Below are positions 46,041 to 64,000 of a stretch of 64,000 bases of DNA, piece after piece. The first letter of the stretch is position 1; each line of letters opens with the position of its first letter. Below the pieces are notes generated by a model, which did not search any database, was not told where the DNA came from, and was given only the letters and a program-made list of their open reading frames with translations. A program made the translations under genes and the position numbers. Source of the stretch: Squalus acanthias (taxonomy: Eukaryota); NCBI GenBank assembly GCA_030390025.1, contig CM059431.1:151156001-151220000 (forward strand), given 5' to 3'.

Positions 46041-47059
46041 TGTAGCCGTCGGCGCAGACTCCATGGATTTTTTTAGATTGTGAACATATACCCTTGTTAA
46101 AAACTGGACAGGCTGTTTAGGGGAAAGCAGTGAAAAACCACTGAAGCTGAAGGTGGCTGACGTAACCATTTTGCATTCGTCTGGTAATGAACTGTCCTTG
46201 GGAACAATGGCCCGAGAGGCCCATTCCCAAGTCATGAATAACGAGGCTGGCGACTCAATGTTTCTGGAGAAGATGAGCTCGTTAATTCAATCGGCTGGGA
46301 GATGGAAACGAGATCTAAACCATCCAAACCTGGGAGGAAGCGTGTAATACATTTCCCAGAGGCCATGTGTCCATTAAAAGCAGAGACAGCTGTCTGTGTT
46401 TTGGGGGGGAGGGTATATCAGAGAGCAGTTTGGATAGCTCTCTCGCTCTCTCCTGCCGTCCACACAACGGAACGTCAAGAGAGCTGAGCCTTGCTCTTCC
46501 AACCGAGACGGACTTCGACTCAGACTGGGATTCGCATTCCACAAGGCCGGCATGGAACCAGGTAGCTGAGATGGACGGGTGGAAGATACTAGCAAGATCA
46601 AAAGGGCAATCTAGGTGAGTATTGCAATGCCTACACACCCACAAGATGACTTGGCTATGTGAGGGGTTGCATGTATGTACCTATCAAACCATAGGGGGAT
46701 TAGTGTTGGAAGGGTCCTGTGATAGTTTAGTTAAAGTGAGGGTTTTGTTTAGGCCATGGTAAGTCAGCACGGCAGGGGCTTGTTGGACAAGTCAGGATTG
46801 TACTGTTTTAAACTCTACTGTTGTGTTCACACCGCTCGTACTGTATGCGAGTGGTGTGGTTTTATCAACCTCAATAAACACTGCACTGGTGAGCTCGAAA
46901 ACGCTGTCCGTGTTCCAATCTGTCCTCAGTAACCTCTATCATCCAGAACTTGTAGTAAGGGTGTTTGCGTGCTCGCTATGGGCGAGCTGAAACCACTTAC
47001 AATAATTGGCGATTGCGGCAGGGGCGATTGGAAATTGGCCACCGCAGAAACCGGTTACA
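46041..47059 (+). repeat. Putative 5' LTR (~0.96-1.02 kb)
   Basis: Starts TGTAGCCG exactly where the CR1 homology stops. Ends CGGTTACA at 47059, an imperfect inverted repeat; an alternative end is CTTACA at 47001. AATAAA at 46873. No second LTR is available to confirm the ends. Confidence 0.7.
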
Positions 47060-47063
47060 GATT

Positions 47064-47081
47064 TGGCGACTGCGGCAGGAC
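47064..47081 (+). promoter_or_regulatory. Primer-binding site, tRNA-Arg(TCG)-type
   Basis: TGGCGACTGCGGCAGGAC matches 17/18 to the complement of the vertebrate tRNA-Arg(TCG) 3' end as recalled (TGGCGACCGCGGCAGGAC). It begins after a 4-nt spacer following the LTR-terminal CA. Confidence 0.75.
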
Positions 47082-47100
47082 GATAGGTTGTGGATTAGAT

Positions 47101-48775
47101 ATGAACAGTTTGGAGGGCAAGAGATCTGGAATAGAGGACAGAATTTCCTCCTGCATGTTTAAAAAGGTTAAACTATCCCAGCAATGGGTGCTGGGGATGT
47201 TGCGCTCTAAGAGTCCCCAAGATAGGACCGCAGAGTTGACAGGGAGCAAGGAACACAGGAAGTTCAAAGAGAAGGCGATTTGGCTCATGTGCTGTCCAAA
47301 GCAAGTTCAACTGCTCCGGCAGCAGGTTGATAAGCTCAAACACGAGCTGAAGGAGTCTGAAGACAAGTCAGACGCAAGGGGGATATTCGGGAGTAGATTA
47401 GTGGAGGGGTTGCGCGAGGAAAGACAGGTACGACGTGCGCAGGAATAGACCTCCCGTAATATGGGGGAATACCTGCGGCGCCAGGTAACGGAGGCCACGT
47501 TAAATGAGCAGTCCTTACGGAAGGAGAACGCAAGATTAACAACGAGAGCTTCCGGTTTGGAGGGTCAGCTAAGGGACATTAAAATAGCTCATAAGGGACC
47601 TAGAAGTAAGGGCTATGAAGACTCTGATCACGATCCCTGAGAAGAAAGGATTAAAAATTGACCCAAGCCTTGTCTGGGGCCATTGGCATGGTCAGTTTAA
47701 TGGCACCAGGGAAAACCCGGGTGGAGTGGGAAAAGGAGTGTCAGGAAGCCAATGATAAGGTTCAGGACAGGGAAGTTCCACCAGCGCCGGAAGCGCCACT
47801 GAGACCAATGTATCCTCTGTGGCAGCAAAAGTTTGGTACACCAACTTCAAACGGTGACGAGGGCCCGCTGCAGAGCGATTAATTGGTGCCCTTCACCACA
47901 CCGCAGTTGCAAGCCATGGTAGCAGAGTTCCCCAAACTAGAACAAGACGGGGATCCCTCAGTTCACTTTATGGAGGTCGAGCAGGTAGGGGTGATCAACG
48001 GGTGTAGCGAGGGCGAGACCCACAGGCTGATGCTGCTCTCTCTTGATGGGAAAATGTATCAGAGCCTGTCCGCAGCCACAAATGCGGGGCGAGGCACCAC
48101 ATAGGGGTTGAAAGAGGAGATCCTGAGAGCCATGGGGCCTACTCAGGGTAGTCCGTTGTCAGAAGTGGAATGGACTCTACAGTTGGCCGGCGAGGCACAA
48201 GCTGCATTTGCGGACAGGCTATGGCCGGTGTAAGCAAAGGCAACTAAAGGTGCGCCAGACCGCGCACAACTGATAGGGGTCCCCAGAAATCACTGGCTCA
48301 GGACAATGGTAGCAAACAGCCTGCCACGGATTAAAGCCAAGGCAGAAGCATGGTTTGACTCCGAGGAACTCGGGAACATGGAGGCAGGCGTGCTCTGGAA
48401 ATTGGGCTTAGCTTTTAGAGCCGGTTCTGGGGAGGAGGTCAACAAAAGGGGAGGGTACATGAGACGAAGGCCAGTAAGGGGGATAGGAAGGAATGGCATC
48501 AGGAAGGGGGTAACACCGACGAGTCTAAGATTTGCTTCAAGTGTGGGATGATGGGACACTGATGGCGGGATTACCCGGCAGAAAAGGGGGGGTCAGGCCG
48601 AAGGGGTCCTGCCGTGCGAAAACCCCAGGTCACTGAGGCGAAGGAGGCGACCAATGAACTGTTTGATGCTCCGGTGGCCACCCTTCGCACGGTGCTGGGG
48701 AAGGACAAAGGAAGGCTAGACGCTGCCGTGAGCAGCATAACGGCGACCGCACCCGCATGTCTTCCTTCCTCCTGA
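47101..48775 (+). pseudogene. gag: gag (coiled-coil N-terminus, retroviral-type capsid with MHR, CCHC knuckle), disrupted
   Basis: YPLWQQ...VPFTTPQLQAMVAEFPKLEQDGDP (capsid N-terminal-like). QLAGEAQAAFADRL at 48180 (MHR pattern QxxxExxxxFxxR). CFKCGMMGH*WRDY at 48533. Confidence 0.8.
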
Positions 48776-51700
48776 TTAGAACGCGCCCAGCCTGAGTACA
48801 AGTGTCCGCTCACTTATAATGAGTGGGACAGGCCCTGTGTTAAGATATTGGTGCAGACGGTGCAGGGGAGATATTTGATGGACACCGGATTTTCCAGCAC
48901 GGTGGTCCATTCGTTGGACCCGACCAATTCACAGTGGTCGAGCAAGGTCCCCTTTAGCCTAATGGGATTCACAGGGAACGAGCAGGCGGAAGCAATGTCC
49001 AAACCCCTGAGAATAGAGCGAGGGTCCCTCCACACCACGTGGAAGTGCGTGCTAATGAAATGGGAGCAACCAGGGTGAGGAATCCTCGGGGCTGATTTCA
49101 TGTTAGCCAACCTGGTCATTGTGGACCTGAGGAATCACTGCCTGAGGGGGCAGTGGTCTCGGACAAGACAGAGGAGGTGAAAGTGATCCCCAGAGATAAG
49201 GGAGGAGGGGGTGTGTATGCACCAGGAAACCCAAAGGGAGATACGACCTGGAACAGTTGGTTATTAGTATCACACCCAGTACCAGGTGAATGTACGGGAC
49301 AAGCTCGCCGCATTCGCCACCCATAAACACGATTGCGGCAGGGTGACCGGGGTAGAGGTCCGGGTGCAAGGGGACCCCATGTCATGGCCACAAAAGCAGT
49401 ATAGTTTCCCCCGGGAGGCAGAAGCCAACTTGGAGACGGCATTGGGATCCCTGGTAAAACAGGGGTTGTTGAGACGAATAGCCACCCACGTGAACTCACC
49501 ACTCTGGCCGCTGAAGAAACCCAACCAGTCCTGGAGAGCCACCGTGGACTATCGGGTCCTTAATAAGATCATCCCAGCTTCCGCGCACACAGTCGCAGTT
49601 GTCGCCGATCTGATAGGGAGCTTTCCAGCAACCGCAACCACATTCAAGGTGCTGGATATCTCCAAAGGGTTTTGGTCGATTCCCCTCAGACGGGAAGACC
49701 TATACAAGTTTGCATTCTCTTTTAAAGGGCAGCAGTATACTTGGACACGCCTTCACCAAGGGGTCGACAACAGTCTCTCAATATTCCACCAATGCATGGC
49801 AGATGCATTAAAAGTACTCAGCCGACCGCACCAGTTAATCCAGTACGTGGACGAACTGCTTTTGTTCTCCGCAGAGGGGGAGAACCACGGGCCACTACTG
49901 GACGAGCTGCTAAAGCTGTTGTAGGAGGCGGGGTTCAAGGTCAACCCCAAAGAAGCCCAGATCGACCAGGAGGATGTGAAATTCCTAGAGCTGAACGTAA
50001 GGGCTGGCGAAAGGGCCATAGACGAGGCTAGGAGGAAGGCAGTACAGGAGCTACTGGCCCCCAAGAAAGTGACTGGGGTAAGGTCTTTTCCGGGAATCAC
50101 AGGGTACTGCCGGGACTTCATAGAGTGTTACACAACCACGGCAGCCCCTCTGCTTCGGGTCCTCCGACAAGGAGTCGAGTGGGAGTGGGATCAGAACTGC
50201 CAGGAAGCGTTCACTCGCCTCAAAGGAGATTTACAGATGGCACCCGCATTGGGAGTCATTAACGGTGTGGAATAAATCTTCTTCGAAGTAGCAGCCAGCG
50301 GGGATAGCTTTAGCGTGGTGTTGCTCCAGGAGCGACATGGCAAGCTATGGCTCGTGGTATAAAAATCTAGGGTTCTCACCGAGTTAGAACGGGGATATTG
50401 CAACTGCGAGAGGCACCTCCTCGTCATGCATTGGGCCGTAAAACGCTCTCAGCTTTTTACGGGTTCATCCCCAATAGTACTCTTGACCCTACACATCCCA
50501 ACTCAGATGCTGTTGGATGGGAGAATCAAATATGGGAGAGTGAGCTGTTCCCGTATTGCTCGCTGGACATTGCTCTTCTCACTGTTGAACTTTAGAGTGC
50601 AGGGGTTGATCGAGCCAAAGCTAGCAGCCAACATGATTTTCCCAGGGACGGCACACACTTGTACGGTAGAAGGGGTTTGGGATGTAGATGAAGGATTCCG
50701 GGCCGGGATATACCCGACGGGTCGGGACATCTACATAGACGGGTCCAGTTCGGTCGTGAAAGGGGAGCGTCTCACCGGGTGCGGAATCTATGAAAGTACG
50801 GCTAAAATAGCGAAGGCCATTAAACTCCCCATCACCCTGAGCGCTCAGCACGCCGAACTGGCGGTGGTGGCGTACGTGGTCACCAACCCCGACGAGTTCC
50901 TCACCCCCTACACCATTTGCTCGGAGTCTATGTTCCCATGCAACTCATGCACGGAATACTTGGCAATCTGGGCCAGGCGCGGATTCAAGTCCACAGGTGG
51001 GAAGTCCCTAGCAACAGCATCGCTGCTAGGTAAAATTTTGGAGTCCACAGGCAGCCGGGGAGATCACTATATTCACAAAGTTAAAGCACATTCAAAGACA
51101 GAGCCCAAGTGGGAGGGCAACCAAAAGGCAGACGAGCTAGCCAATCAGTGCGCCAGGGAAGGAGCATTCTGGGATCCGTACAAAGCAGGTCCGGTAGCAG
51201 CAATCCGGGACAAGGGAGGCACAAAGGGGGTAGCTTTGGCCCCGGACTTAAAGCATGTCCAAGCCCAGGATCCCGTCCTTAAGGCAATCCTGGTAAAGAG
51301 AGACATTAGGTGTGTCCATAGAAGATCCGTTCGGGGCAGCGGACATTAGTATCAAAGAGGGGATGCGTTTCAAAGGGGATTGGTGGGTAGTCCCAGCGCA
51401 GCACCGAGAGGAGTTTATCCAGTTGGCCCATGCGGGTCCGGGAGCGGGACACCCAGGGTCGGAAACTACCTGGCAAACCTTAGAGGAGGCAGCGTAGTGG
51501 CCCCAGCTCCGGGAGGATGTCCGAGTTTTTTGTGCGCACTGTTTGGTGTGCGCCAACAATAAACCCGATCCACAGCACAGCAAAGCCCCCATAGGACACA
51601 CCAGGAGGGTGGATGGGCCGTGGTGGTCCCTGCAGGTCGAATTAATCGGACCACTACCCACCACTAAAGCAGGCAACAAGTACTGTTTAGTCCTGGTGGA

Positions 51701-52652
51701 CGTATTTTCCAAGTGCGTGGAAGCCTTCCCCTGCCGAGCAGCCTCGGCACTAGCAACAACTAGAATTCTGTTGAGGGAAGTGTTCTCCTGGTGGGGGCTG
51801 CCACAGGTCGTGGAGTCCGACCAAGGGAGCCATTTCACGGGGCAGGTGAGGCAGGCCACCTTAACACTCTTGGGAATACAAGGGAAGCGGCATGCGGCTC
51901 ACAACACACAGTCATCGGGGATTGTGGAGCGCATGAACTGGACACTGAAAGAAAGACTGAGGCAGGAGATAAGCCCGTTCCTGCAGAGATGGAACGAGGT
52001 CTTGCCTATAATCTTAATGGGTGTCCGGGCCAGCACCTCCAGAAGCACAGGGTAGTCCCCACACGAGCTTATGACCGGGAGGATTATGTGCACCCCAACC
52101 CATGTGTTGGCGTCGGTTCTCACCGAAGCGCAGGTCAGGGAGGTAAACCGGGACAGGTTTGTCCAGATTCTGTACGAGACATGGAAACGGATTCACTGGC
52201 AGGCAGCCAGTAACCTGAGAAGCCAGTACCAGAAAAATCAGCTGCTGTTAGAACCCCAGAGAACCCAAGATTGGGAGGAGGGAGACCAGGAAATGGTTCG
52301 TAATTACGCACGAGTAAGTGCGTTTGAGATGCGGTAGATGGGCCCTTATAATATCGTGGATAAAGCGAGCCACATGGTATATGCAGTAAAACTCCCGAAA
52401 CTCACGAAATAGATTCCTGTCAATCAGTGCAAGTTGTTTAATCCCGAGAAGTGGAAAACAAAGGCCAAGAGGCACCAGGGCACAGTCAAGAGCCTGGTGG
52501 ACGCGGGTCTTCCTCCCATGCTGTGTTTCGATGATGACCTGGAGGACAGGGCGGTAAGTAGCAGCAGTCGTGTCCCATGGCCTAGGGTGCCATGGACGCC
52601 TCCCTACTCACTGACTGTGAGCCACAAGAGACCCCGACGGGAGAGGTCTTAA
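48776..52652 (+). pseudogene. pol: pol: protease, RT, degenerate RNase H (tether), second RNase H, integrase with GPY/F
   Basis: PR: LMDTGFS. RT: NSPLWPLKKPNQSWRATVDYRVLN, LDISKGFWS, QYTWTRLHQG, YVDE. Tether at ~50276-50580. RH: IDGS...SAQHAEL...KVKAH...GNQKADELA. IN: H..GH...CxxC, VDVFSK, SDQGSHF, SSGIVER, GPY. Confidence 0.93.
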
Positions 52653-52801
52653 ATGTGGCGCTCGTTAATGCGTCAGGGAACACTGTAAATATTTTGTAAA
52701 TAACCAAAACCAGATCATTGGAGGAAAATTCTCTCACAGAACGGAACTGTTTTACTTTTGTTTTGGTAGGGAACCAAAGGAAATCGGAGGAACAAGGGGA
52801 T

Positions 52802-53242
52802 ATGGCCAATACATTTATCGTACTTCTATTACTAATGATGATCGGGAATGGCAGCATGGAAAGAGGAGACACCGAGGTATCCTTCCTCTACGGCTGCACA
52901 GAGGGAACGGGCCAACCGTGACACAGTGGGGTAGAACAGGGGACACGGCCGGGATGGACACTTACTTCCACGAGAGAAGGTGGGCAGGGTGGCTGTGATC
53001 GAACTTGACTCGATACTCCGTCAGCGAGGGTTTCACGTATGGAGAAGCTTCCATATCGTTTCCCAAACTGCAGGTCACAGGCACACGGGTTCGGGTGACC
53101 GAGGGGAAATGTGTCTGTCTAAGATGTGAGAGTTACATTCCCTTGGGACGGTACTAGTGGTTAAGGAAGTTGGGCCAGGCCAAGGGTAACCAATCCGCGG
53201 ACTGGGAGAAACTGGGGGACGTATATGTACCGATAGATTACA
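52802..53242 (+). pseudogene. Candidate env-like (secreted glycoprotein) 5' remnant
   Basis: MANTFIVLLLLMMIGNGS is signal-peptide-like. Pyrimidine tract + AG at 52746-52769. A shifted frame from 52954 has NLT and NQS sequons and CxCxxC. Env position after IN. No recognisable homology. Confidence 0.45.
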
Positions 53243-53396
53243 GTGTGTTTGAGATAGAATGTGATGAGAAGAGATGTCGAGCTGAAGCAATGAGCTGACG
53301 GAGCGTGTGTTCAGAGGGCGGCTCCAGGCAGGAAATGAAGGGAATGTAATTCCAAACCACAGCCACTCAGTGTCGCTGCTTCAGTGGCCTTTCAGC

Positions 53397-53468
53397 GCCC
53401 GGATAGCTCAATCGGTAGAGCGTCAGACTTTTAATCTGAGTTCCTGGGATCAATTCGCTGTTCGTTCA
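53397..53468 (+). pseudogene. tRNA-Lys(UUU) pseudogene, copy 1
   Basis: GCCCGGATAGCTCAATCGGTAGAGCGTCAGACTTTTAATCTGAG. The 5' half is near canonical; the T-loop (GGATCAA) and the 3' acceptor strand are degenerate. Confidence 0.9.
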
Positions 53469-53634
53469 CATCTTTAATACATGGAAACAGCAATTTAAAG
53501 CACCGACGTTAGATTATAATTTATAACAATAACCATTTTAAAATTAAAATATTTTTTGAGACAGCAGGAAAGATCAGCGTCAATTGCTCGTGTTTTATGG
53601 TTCTCTAGGAAAGTAAGATTTGAAAGAATGAAAG

Positions 53635-56818: not shown

Positions 56819-57123
56819 ATACTAGAAAAAGATTAGGTGCTGAGATTAAGCTGCAGGGAGTCGGATCTTGGAGAAGGGATGAGATTGAGGAGTAGCAGGT
56901 CAGATTGAAGGCAAAATTTCAGATTCAGGAGATATGGTCATTTAAGTTCGGAACAGACTCGCGGCTGTTAATGTGTTTGAGATAGAATGTGCTGAGAAGA
57001 GGTGTCGAGCTGAATCAATGGGGTGACGGTGCGTGTACTCAGAGGTTGACTATAGGCAGGAAGTGAAGGAAATGTAATTCTCTGAAACAGCCAATCAGTG
57101 TCGCTGTTTCGTTAATGTTCAGA

Positions 57124-63647: not shown

Positions 63648-63961
63648 GGCGGTGAGATTAAGGAGAAGGGAGTCAGATTGGGAGCAAGGAATGAGATTGA
63701 GGAGTAGGGATCAGATTGAGTTGGGATCAGATTGAAGAAGAATGTTCAGATTCAGGAGTAAGGGTAATTTCAGTTCGGAGCAGACTCGAGGCAGGTTGAT
63801 GGCTCTTATTGTGATTGAGATGGAATGTGCTGAAAAAAGATGTCGAGCTGAAGCAATGGGATGACGGTGCGCGTGTTCAGGAAGCGGCTCCAGGCAGTAA
63901 GTGAAGAGAATGCAATTCCTCCCAAAGCCACTCAGTGTCGCTGCTTCGTTGGTACTTCAAA

Positions 63962-64000
63962 GCCCGGCTAGCATAGTCGACAGAGTGTCAGACTTTTAAT
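63962..64000 (+). pseudogene. tRNA-Lys(UUU) gene/pseudogene, copy 3 (cut by the window end)
   Basis: GCCCGGCTAGCATAGTCGACAGAGTGTCAGACTTTTAAT with a mutated D-arm/A box, and the same upstream flank as copies 1 and 2. Confidence 0.85.

Follow-up and report, generated by a model that had tools for sequence, protein, structure and literature searches.

The window, a stretch of 64,000 nucleotides from Squalus acanthias, holds the remains of an endogenous retrovirus on its + strand, and every part that an earlier note on this DNA had listed was located there. The provirus opens with a 5' LTR (TG...CA, 46041..47059) of 1019 nt. The earlier figure of about 1 kb was accordingly sound, although the end of the LTR, which had been put at about 47002, is moved here to 47059, because the 57 extra bases are present in the 3' LTRs of other copies. 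Both ends are fixed by genomic copies that have two LTRs. Thirty-nine further full or near-full matches to the LTR were found, at 83-91% identity (40 scored out of 675 candidates). The window copy itself has a single LTR and stops at 53241; the remainder of the provirus is absent from the window and from the next 20 kb.

The primer-binding site (47064..47081, + strand) starts 4 nt past the LTR and matches tRNA-Arg(TCG) at 17 of 18 positions. A duplicate resembling it lies within U5 (47007..47022, + strand), 57 nt upstream of the true site, and is carried by the 3' LTRs too. The search for the tRNA-Arg primer gave 424 pattern matches, with ARAGORN calling Arg tcg at both of the loci scanned. 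The 2,976 matches to the pattern of the binding site are, of course, not a copy number; all four that were checked lie in other elements.

Next comes gag (47101..48775, + strand), disrupted by stops and frameshifts. It encodes an N-terminal coiled coil that extends to about 47640, a capsid region, and a single CCHC knuckle. Within the capsid region, a motif resembling the major homology region (MHR; 48180..48218, + strand) was read by eye and fits the consensus QX3EX4-phi-X2R (PMC8278194, Table 2); Pfam gave no capsid match for this region, either in the window or in the other copies examined. The knuckle (48533..48574, + strand) is broken in the window copy (Pfam E 0.07-0.13), but two other copies show it plainly (E 1e-7). 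The capsid with MHR and CCHC described earlier is there, with the CCHC part spoiled in this copy. An in-frame TGA (48773..48775, + strand) separates gag from pro-pol; the junction pattern is matched in the window and in two other copies, and the TGA is likely a read-through site for Gag-Pol.

The pol region, all on the + strand, begins with an aspartic protease of the DTG type (48824..49102; Pfam RVP E 0.007, under the cut-off) and a reverse transcriptase (RT; 49367..50170; RVT_1 E 2e-23). The tether that follows (50186..50578) has the RNase H fold of Ty3/Gypsy type (RT_RNaseH_2 E 1e-12) and is without two catalytic aspartates across the copies compared. A second, retroviral RNase H lies at 50729..51154 (RNase_H E 2e-12). 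The two RNase H folds of the earlier description are therefore both present, and a degenerate tether, a second RNase H and an env together bear out that this is a true endogenous retrovirus. The integrase (51390..52415), in a frame different from that of the RT and RNase H in the window copy, has an H2C2 finger (Integrase_H2C2 E 6e-15), a core (rve E 2e-11) and a GPY/SH3 end seen at E 0.008, under the cut-off. The YVDE reported at the RT active site is indeed in the window, where its E is decay private to this copy; YVDD stands in six of ten fetched copies, those in which the site was located.

The family in this genome and elsewhere

The provirus belongs to a multicopy family whose members are 87-90% identical (40 scored out of 440 candidates). 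Two LTRs are present in seven of ten fetched copies, and a target duplication of 4 bp was found in three of the four copies in which both flanks were read. The two LTRs of a copy diverge by K2P 0.022-0.047.

The closest named proteins are also from sharks, Pristiophorus japonicus and Heptranchias perlo, where they are annotated as uncharacterized. They are 60-72% identical to the family in Env and 72-74% in a piece of RT; judged by these protein sequences, both sharks appear to carry the same family or a sister of it. Exons of a Mustelus transporter, compared as a host test with no comparator, gave 42-81% and do not decide the host. Scans of metagenomes returned 59 loci at 24-38% identity and no close relative. 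IMG/VR likewise held no close relative of the family, with zero matches to the FLERV motif.

The envelope and what it may mean

What remains of env in the window (52802..53241, + strand) is its 5' part, which comprises a signal peptide and the initial half of what is likely an Ig-like domain and breaks off where the provirus ends; the signal-peptide frame noted earlier in env position is this fragment. Other genomic copies carry the rest. Their full Env has a furin-type RYRR site and a hydrophobic C-terminal anchor, and about 200 nt separate the env stop from the 3' LTR. The marks of a gamma-type Env, ISD and CX6CC, were found in neither of two natural Env stretches.

The N-terminal part of Env is likely an Ig-like domain, to judge from a profile for which 40 of 41 PDB matches are Ig proteins. 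AlphaFold gave this part a pLDDT of 53 and an all-beta pattern; a Foldseek search of the model against PDB and BFVD returned nothing at E<=0.001. For the fusion part, language-model scores suggest that it is probably of F type. Here, the top matches in the ESM Atlas were Baculo_F and Fusion_gly (0.93, ten of ten in one clan), and the Env of snakehead retrovirus (SnRV) gave the same F-type result (0.95), with recognition values of 1738 and 1601 that fall below 2300 and flag these scores as weak. Neither Pfam nor PDB gave an F protein match to Env, the F of Mononegavirales (PF00523) included, and an AlphaFold model of the fusion part (8 rows) was unusable at pLDDT 30.

Direct comparison of the family's Env with that of SnRV gave mixed results. 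In a global alignment of the genomic Env with SnRV Env, whose ends were chosen by eye and which had no unrelated-fusogen control, 0 of 500 shuffles did as well; for two sawshark Env proteins the counts were 0/500 and 16/500. Local, pairwise and profile comparisons with SnRV Env were not significant. Profiles of the Ig and F parts built from sharks only did not raise SnRV Env above shuffles (80/1000 and 32/1000), a profile of the Ig start of a second shark Env family picked it weakly (13/1000), and a search with SnRV Env as the query found no homolog.

One idea we put forward tentatively, and think somewhat unlikely as a whole: that an Env type not recognised so far is common to SnRV and its relatives in sharks, in which an Ig part precedes a paramyxovirus-like F, that F is the ancestral retroviral Env, and that the Ig part is a captured host adhesion module. 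Were it true, F-type Env would be found in lokiretroviruses, in foamy viruses, and in one lineage on the orthoretrovirus side. The gamma-type Env would be a later replacement, as within sharks, where CmiERV lineage I has it and this family does not, and the captured module would serve in receptor binding. Our literature search met no statement that SnRV Env is F-type or bears Ig; Calcraft 2024, Hart 1996, Hayward 2015 and Viro3D Dataset EV6 may contain one.

The locus itself is, of course, an ordinary dead provirus, and cartilaginous-fish elements that cluster with SnRV are already in print. What stays unusual is the Env, which lacks the gamma-type CX6CC, likely has an Ig domain, and probably has an F-type fusion part. 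The family is of value for what it shows of how envelopes evolve: it adds to the class III retroviruses shark families whose Env is non-gamma and probably of F type. SnRV probably has the same type, and the matter is structurally solvable.

Placement among retroviruses

We consider it reasonably probable that the window holds a decayed, 3'-truncated class III provirus of the SnRV-like group, or clade Huo, of fishes, coelacanth and frogs, with an Env that is Ig-like and of predicted F type. In the arrangement of its genes, in its priming by tRNA-Arg and in its RT motifs, the family agrees with SnRV. Such a virus would have made Gag-Pol by read-through of the stop, primed reverse transcription with tRNA-Arg, and then integrated. 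It would have entered cells with a furin-cleaved Env, the Ig-like part binding a receptor and the F-like part fusing membranes. Entry into the germ line would have occurred tens of millions of years ago, followed by spread over hundreds of sites, in part through forms that had lost pol and were likely mobilised in trans. The window copy inserted into a CR1-type LINE and lost its 3' end afterwards. It encodes nothing functional at present.

The main tree was built from RT plus tether (49 rows x 411 columns), with reference sets that hold no fish foamy-like ERVs (FLERV, such as AciFLERV and AliFLERV; ERV-Spuma.0-Sca; CFEFV) and no ERV-L, Odin or alpha/beta/lenti sequences, nor CmiERV lineage I. 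The Loki rows were identified through short motifs in the alignment of Wang and Han. The window falls in an 11-row group with ERV proteins of coelacanth, bullfrog and Xenopus, supported at 97/97 (90/94 in a 31-row tree), which upholds the class III character, in the wide sense, claimed earlier. PMC4977317 describes the ERVs of the coelacanth as mainly SnRV-like. SnRV is a long branch in the RT trees. Free trees place it outside the window's group.

This arrangement is what one would expect if the coelacanth, frog, fish and shark elements were a separate deep class III lineage, lumped as "SnRV-like" while not forming one clade with SnRV; CmiERV lineage I would probably belong to it as well. We think this unlikely. 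SnRV stays outside in all three free trees, joining epsilon/gamma rows at 85/84 in the 49-row tree and at 96/98 in another, and the RT is 38% identical to SnRV as against 42-51% to coelacanth, frog and unnamed rows. However, a union of the window's group with SnRV is left unrejected by the AU test (p=0.077), the branch of SnRV is long, and SnRV and the family have in common the layouts of Gag and Env, the read-through and the tRNA-Arg.

Descent near the base of the foamy viruses, for example among cartilaginous-fish endogenous foamy viruses or FLERVs, strikes us as quite improbable. The best PDB match is foamy Pol (6e-48), slightly ahead of MLV (8e-46), and, for RT alone, the AU test tolerates a placement as sister of mammalian foamy viruses (p=0.39). 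PMC10699275 reports foamy-like ERVs in catshark, and PMC11468914 relates foamy Env to F. No free tree, however, joins the window to foamy viruses, the RNase H tree leaves it outside a Loki+foamy group (93/83, the rest of that tree being poorly supported), and by eye the RT shows neither the foamy NTPVYP nor the FLERV NSPIQAV motif. Foamy Gag is without MHR and Cys-His box, and foamy pol has its own start in another frame (PMC8278194), whereas this family has MHR, CCHC and an in-frame stop. The family differs from foamy viruses in its primer as well.

The earlier note favoured a lokiretrovirus, or a lineage near the transition from retrotransposon to retrovirus. A first cartilaginous-fish lokiretrovirus, or something between Loki/Gypsy and retroviruses, now seems very improbable. 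Lokiretroviruses (Wang and Han, 2021; PMC7947760) do share with the family the dual RNase H, which is common to all retroviruses and so not diagnostic, a coiled coil ("smc") ahead of the capsid, and an F-related Env with a furin site, the F type being only predicted in the family; in the integrase, Loki rows score 184-189 bits, near the 185-209 bits of the window's own group. Yet Loki forms its own group at 100/100, the window is nested in the Retroviridae without Loki at 100/99, and the AU test rejects the Loki placement (p=0.009). The nesting also speaks, indirectly, against the Odin retrotransposons, whose RT is sister to Loki plus retroviruses. The RT lacks the Loki signature RCPFG, the RNase H falls outside Loki, and Loki Env, by eye, is without the long N-terminal Ig-like extension. 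The env alone may have come from a Loki donor by recombination. The earlier statement that Loki was not reported from sharks is right: it was detected in none of three cartilaginous-fish genomes.

A Ty3/Gypsy retrotransposon with an additional RNase H is scarcely credible: a GPY module and a first RNase H fold of Gypsy type are outweighed by an env, by a Ty3 RT match of 2e-26 against 6e-48 for foamy Pol, by an RT that lies apart from all Gypsy rows at 100/100, and by a quick integrase tree that splits Gypsy off at 97 (1 of 17 Gypsy rows astray). That tree, poorly resolved, does not group the integrase, once called Gypsy-like, with Gypsy. Its reference set is without true CGIN1, whereas a Loki integrase would be sister to CGIN1/NYNRIN.

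Comparison with known systems

XtERV-S was considered as an identity and dropped. XtERV-S and ERV-L share with the family a class III pol, MHR and an in-frame TGA; they differ in having YIDD, no CCHC, a dUTPase, a 5-bp duplication, and a gamma-type env or none (PMC8278194).

Closer by host are ERVs of the elephant shark already described as clustering with SnRV, CmiERV lineage I (Han, 2015; PMC4422223). By eye, these share the RT motifs, a long coiled-coil Gag, CCHC and the in-frame stop, and their LTR divergence of 0.033 is similar to that of the family. They differ in a gamma-type env with LQNR..LD and CX6CC (by eye, supplement of PMC4422223). CmiERV lineage I and the family of the window are separate families. 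The primer site of the former, we take it, is Ser, unlike the Arg found here.

The nearest comparison is SnRV, which is grown in culture as a live fish virus and for which an infectious clone exists (PMC12193657), with the SnRV-like or clade Huo ERVs as the comparison group (PMC12193657, PMC6001957, PMC4977317). By eye, in the alignment of Wang and Han, the RT motifs are nearer the SnRV row than the Loki, foamy or FLERV rows. SnRV differs in a gag-pol stop that is TAG rather than TGA, in a longer Env and a longer cytoplasmic tail, and in a 3' accessory ORF, for which the family has no space. Its primer is presumably a different Arg isoacceptor from the family's tRNA-Arg(TCG). Both have a coiled-coil Gag with one CCHC, an in-frame gag-pol stop, a primer of tRNA-Arg type, the same RT motifs, a tether plus RNase H, and a long Env that is without CX6CC, has a likely Ig-like start, and shows predicted F-like features. 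The mixed character noted earlier, a class III RT together with MHR, CCHC, a coiled-coil Gag and an in-frame gag-pol stop, is the layout of SnRV itself and, by eye, that of CmiERV lineage I.

A dead provirus and its family

The element at 46041-53241 on the + strand of the window (genome 3.71 Gb) is a real class III endogenous retrovirus, dead but well preserved in outline. Here, single-frame translations with X at stops were read for domains by Pfam. On the + strand they give a gag that opens with a coiled coil and also has a motif of MHR type and a CCHC knuckle, here broken, followed by a protease (E 0.007), RT (2e-23), a first RNase H fold of Gypsy type (1e-12), a second RNase H (2e-12), an integrase finger (6e-15) and core (2e-11), a weak match to the GPY/SH3 end of integrase, and a signal peptide at the start of env. 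The parts list of an earlier note on this DNA, with its env-position signal peptide and LTR of about 1 kb, holds; the family LTR has 1019 nt, running from TG to CA, and a purine tract precedes the 3' LTR. Stops and frameshifts disrupt every gene of the window copy. Neither the final 2 kb of its env nor its 3' LTR occurs in the window or in the 20 kb that follow.

At the truncation point stands a repeated unit (53244-53470, 56972-57110, 63810-64000) that includes what we take to be tRNA-Lys-like sequence; ARAGORN called no tRNA genes in the window. Upstream of the element lie CR1-type LINE pieces and about 40 kb of satellite (window 1-40000), whose pyrimidine-rich 14-bp unit is arranged in higher-order repeats of about 3 kb.

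Searching the genome with the LTR gave at least 40 copies at 83-91% identity (40 of 675 candidates scored), and with the pol-env junction at least 40 at 87-90% (40 of 440 scored); both figures are minima and do not give the number of copies. Ten of the 40 junction copies were retrieved. LTR matches flank seven of the ten on both sides, one copy is of unbroken length (10,195 nt), and a 4-bp duplication is present in three of the four with both flanks read. LTR pairs differ by K2P of 0.022, 0.027, 0.035 and 0.047, which corresponds to 22-47 My at the rate of PMC10699275 and to 50-107 My at that of PMC4422223, these rates being uncertain. The window LTR is 89-92% alike to nine others, whereas those nine are 93-98% alike among themselves; thus, the window copy is older or has decayed faster. 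The YVDE motif of the earlier note is indeed there, but it is private to this copy (all six others with the site have YVDD), as are further changes at other catalytic positions.

Two copies, on C5 (loci L019-L020) and C11 (L029-L030), have an identical internal deletion from capsid to tether yet retain env, which suggests a non-autonomous subfamily spread in trans. Deletions in other copies differ from this one.

At window 47064 the primer-binding site matches the tRNA-Arg(TCG) of the host at its 3' end. Gag ends with a TGA that keeps the frame of pro-pol, both in the window copy and in the two others matching the junction pattern. LTR and primer site are 4 nt apart. A duplicate of their junction lies inside U5, 57 nt upstream of the true one (both within 47007-47081), and 3' LTRs have it too. 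The same primer site occurs in other LTR families of the genome (loci L116-L119), with 2,976 pattern matches genome-wide, and at C26:39-42 Mb (L121-L123) tRNA-Arg(TCG) genes stand in large tandem arrays (period 1,623 bp), one neighbour being tRNA-Ser(GCT).

Placement among retroviruses

Tree references were 150 best representatives, 12 homologs, and IMG/VR genomes found via short motifs. SnRV was recognised by its length of 10,688 nt (PMC12193657) and by the RT letters of its row in a published alignment (PMC7947760), whose motifs, rather than database names, served to label the Loki, foamy, WDSV and delta rows. From 192 RT extracts, sets of 72, 49 and 31 rows were picked by hand, without FLERV, ERV-L, Odin, CmiERV or alpha/beta/lenti references. 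An RT-plus-tether tree (the careful run, 411 columns) and an RT-alone tree were built.

The earlier note proposed trees of RT, RNase H and integrase. The two RT trees are concordant, and place the window in a group of 11 rows (97/97) that it shares with proteins of coelacanth, bullfrog and Xenopus and with unnamed ones. The RNase H tree has a Loki plus foamy group (93/83) that excludes the window, and lacks resolution elsewhere. A quick tree puts the integrase on the retrovirus side (97). The enzyme scores best, at about 205 bits, with ERV proteins of frogs named "NYNRIN-like", and no Gypsy match exceeds 120 bits; a Gypsy-like integrase is not supported. The first catalytic aspartate of the tether is missing in the window and in 7 of 10 copies with the site, a feature that marks retroviral tethers.

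The family is most likely SnRV-like in the broad published sense. Forcing SnRV into the window's group was not rejected (AU test, p=0.077, 31 rows); the free trees set SnRV beside epsilon/gamma rows, outside that group. Union with mammalian foamy viruses was not rejected either (p=0.39, 31 rows). The proposed place among lokiretroviruses is rejected for RT: forcing it gave p=0.009, and the window falls outside Loki (100/100). A transitional retrotransposon is not supported either, with the window nested within the rest of Retroviridae (100/99) and the Gypsy outgroup apart (100/100).

The nearest named proteins are from sharks, Pristiophorus for Env (60-72% identity) and Heptranchias for pieces of RT (72-74%). 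P0044, P0045, P0006 and P0012 are pol genes of ERVs that databases wrongly list as host genes, with entries such as "NYNRIN-like", "Gypsy retrotransposon integrase-like protein 1" and an RT joined to a transporter model.

The envelope

In other copies, Env begins with the signal peptide and a W/C-rich N-terminus of about 250 residues. A GLVLVP motif, an RYRR site and helical heptads follow, then a region rich in cysteines, and lastly a single membrane anchor with a short tail. CX6CC and ISD were sought in these copies and neither was found.

The N-terminus is likely an Ig domain, judging from its sequence matches. Those to Pfam Ig models are weak (E 0.007-0.011 for the family, 0.012 for a second family at C7:118.76 Mb, 0.09 for SnRV, V-set). 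A four-row profile that includes SnRV and the second family gave 41 PDB matches at E<=1, 40 of them Ig-superfamily by name (best 2e-5).

The fusion part is probably F-type, going by a language-model score. In the ESM Atlas it falls with Baculo_F and paramyxovirus F clusters at 0.93, and SnRV Env scores 0.95, with low recognition values in both cases; nothing came of local and profile comparisons, of Pfam and PDB searches, or of AlphaFold. Global alignment of family Env to SnRV Env, whose ends were set by eye, outscores 500 of 500 shuffles. The likely Ig plus probable F-type Env, and what it may say about the ancestral envelope of retroviruses, are the main interest of the family.

Relatives in the dogfish and elsewhere

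Two further families lie on C7, as the window does, and neither region has a DNA-level match to the window family. That at C7:118.76 Mb (L124-L125), interrupted by a Gypsy element, has the same Env layout, and its Env is homologous (E 2e-33 and 2e-11). The other, at C7:94.54 Mb (L128), is a third class III family with an open gag of 516 aa with two zinc knuckles, an open pro-RT of 458 aa, and an RT 49% identical to that of the window family.

The earlier note's statement that lokiretroviruses were not reported from sharks agrees with Wang and Han (PMC7947760), who give them in 0 of 3 chondrichthyan genomes. SnRV relatives belong to clade Huo, across all major vertebrate lineages (Xu 2018), and the major ERV type in coelacanth is SnRV-like (PMC4977317). 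Song 2023 (PMC10699275) has a foamy-like ERV in catshark. Elephant-shark CmiERV lineage I clusters with SnRV in Han 2015 (PMC4422223); it resembles the family, by eye, in RT type, coiled-coil Gag and CCHC, and has, unlike the family, a gamma-type env.

A coiled coil stands ahead of the capsid in SnRV (316-2193) and in the window (47101-47640), in a position resembling that of "smc", a region described as special to lokiretroviruses; by analogy, it may be a Gag feature common to all three. The "mixed character" remarked on earlier is a layout that SnRV itself has. SnRV likewise has an in-frame stop between gag and pol, TAG rather than the family's TGA (from its genome and PMC13517186).
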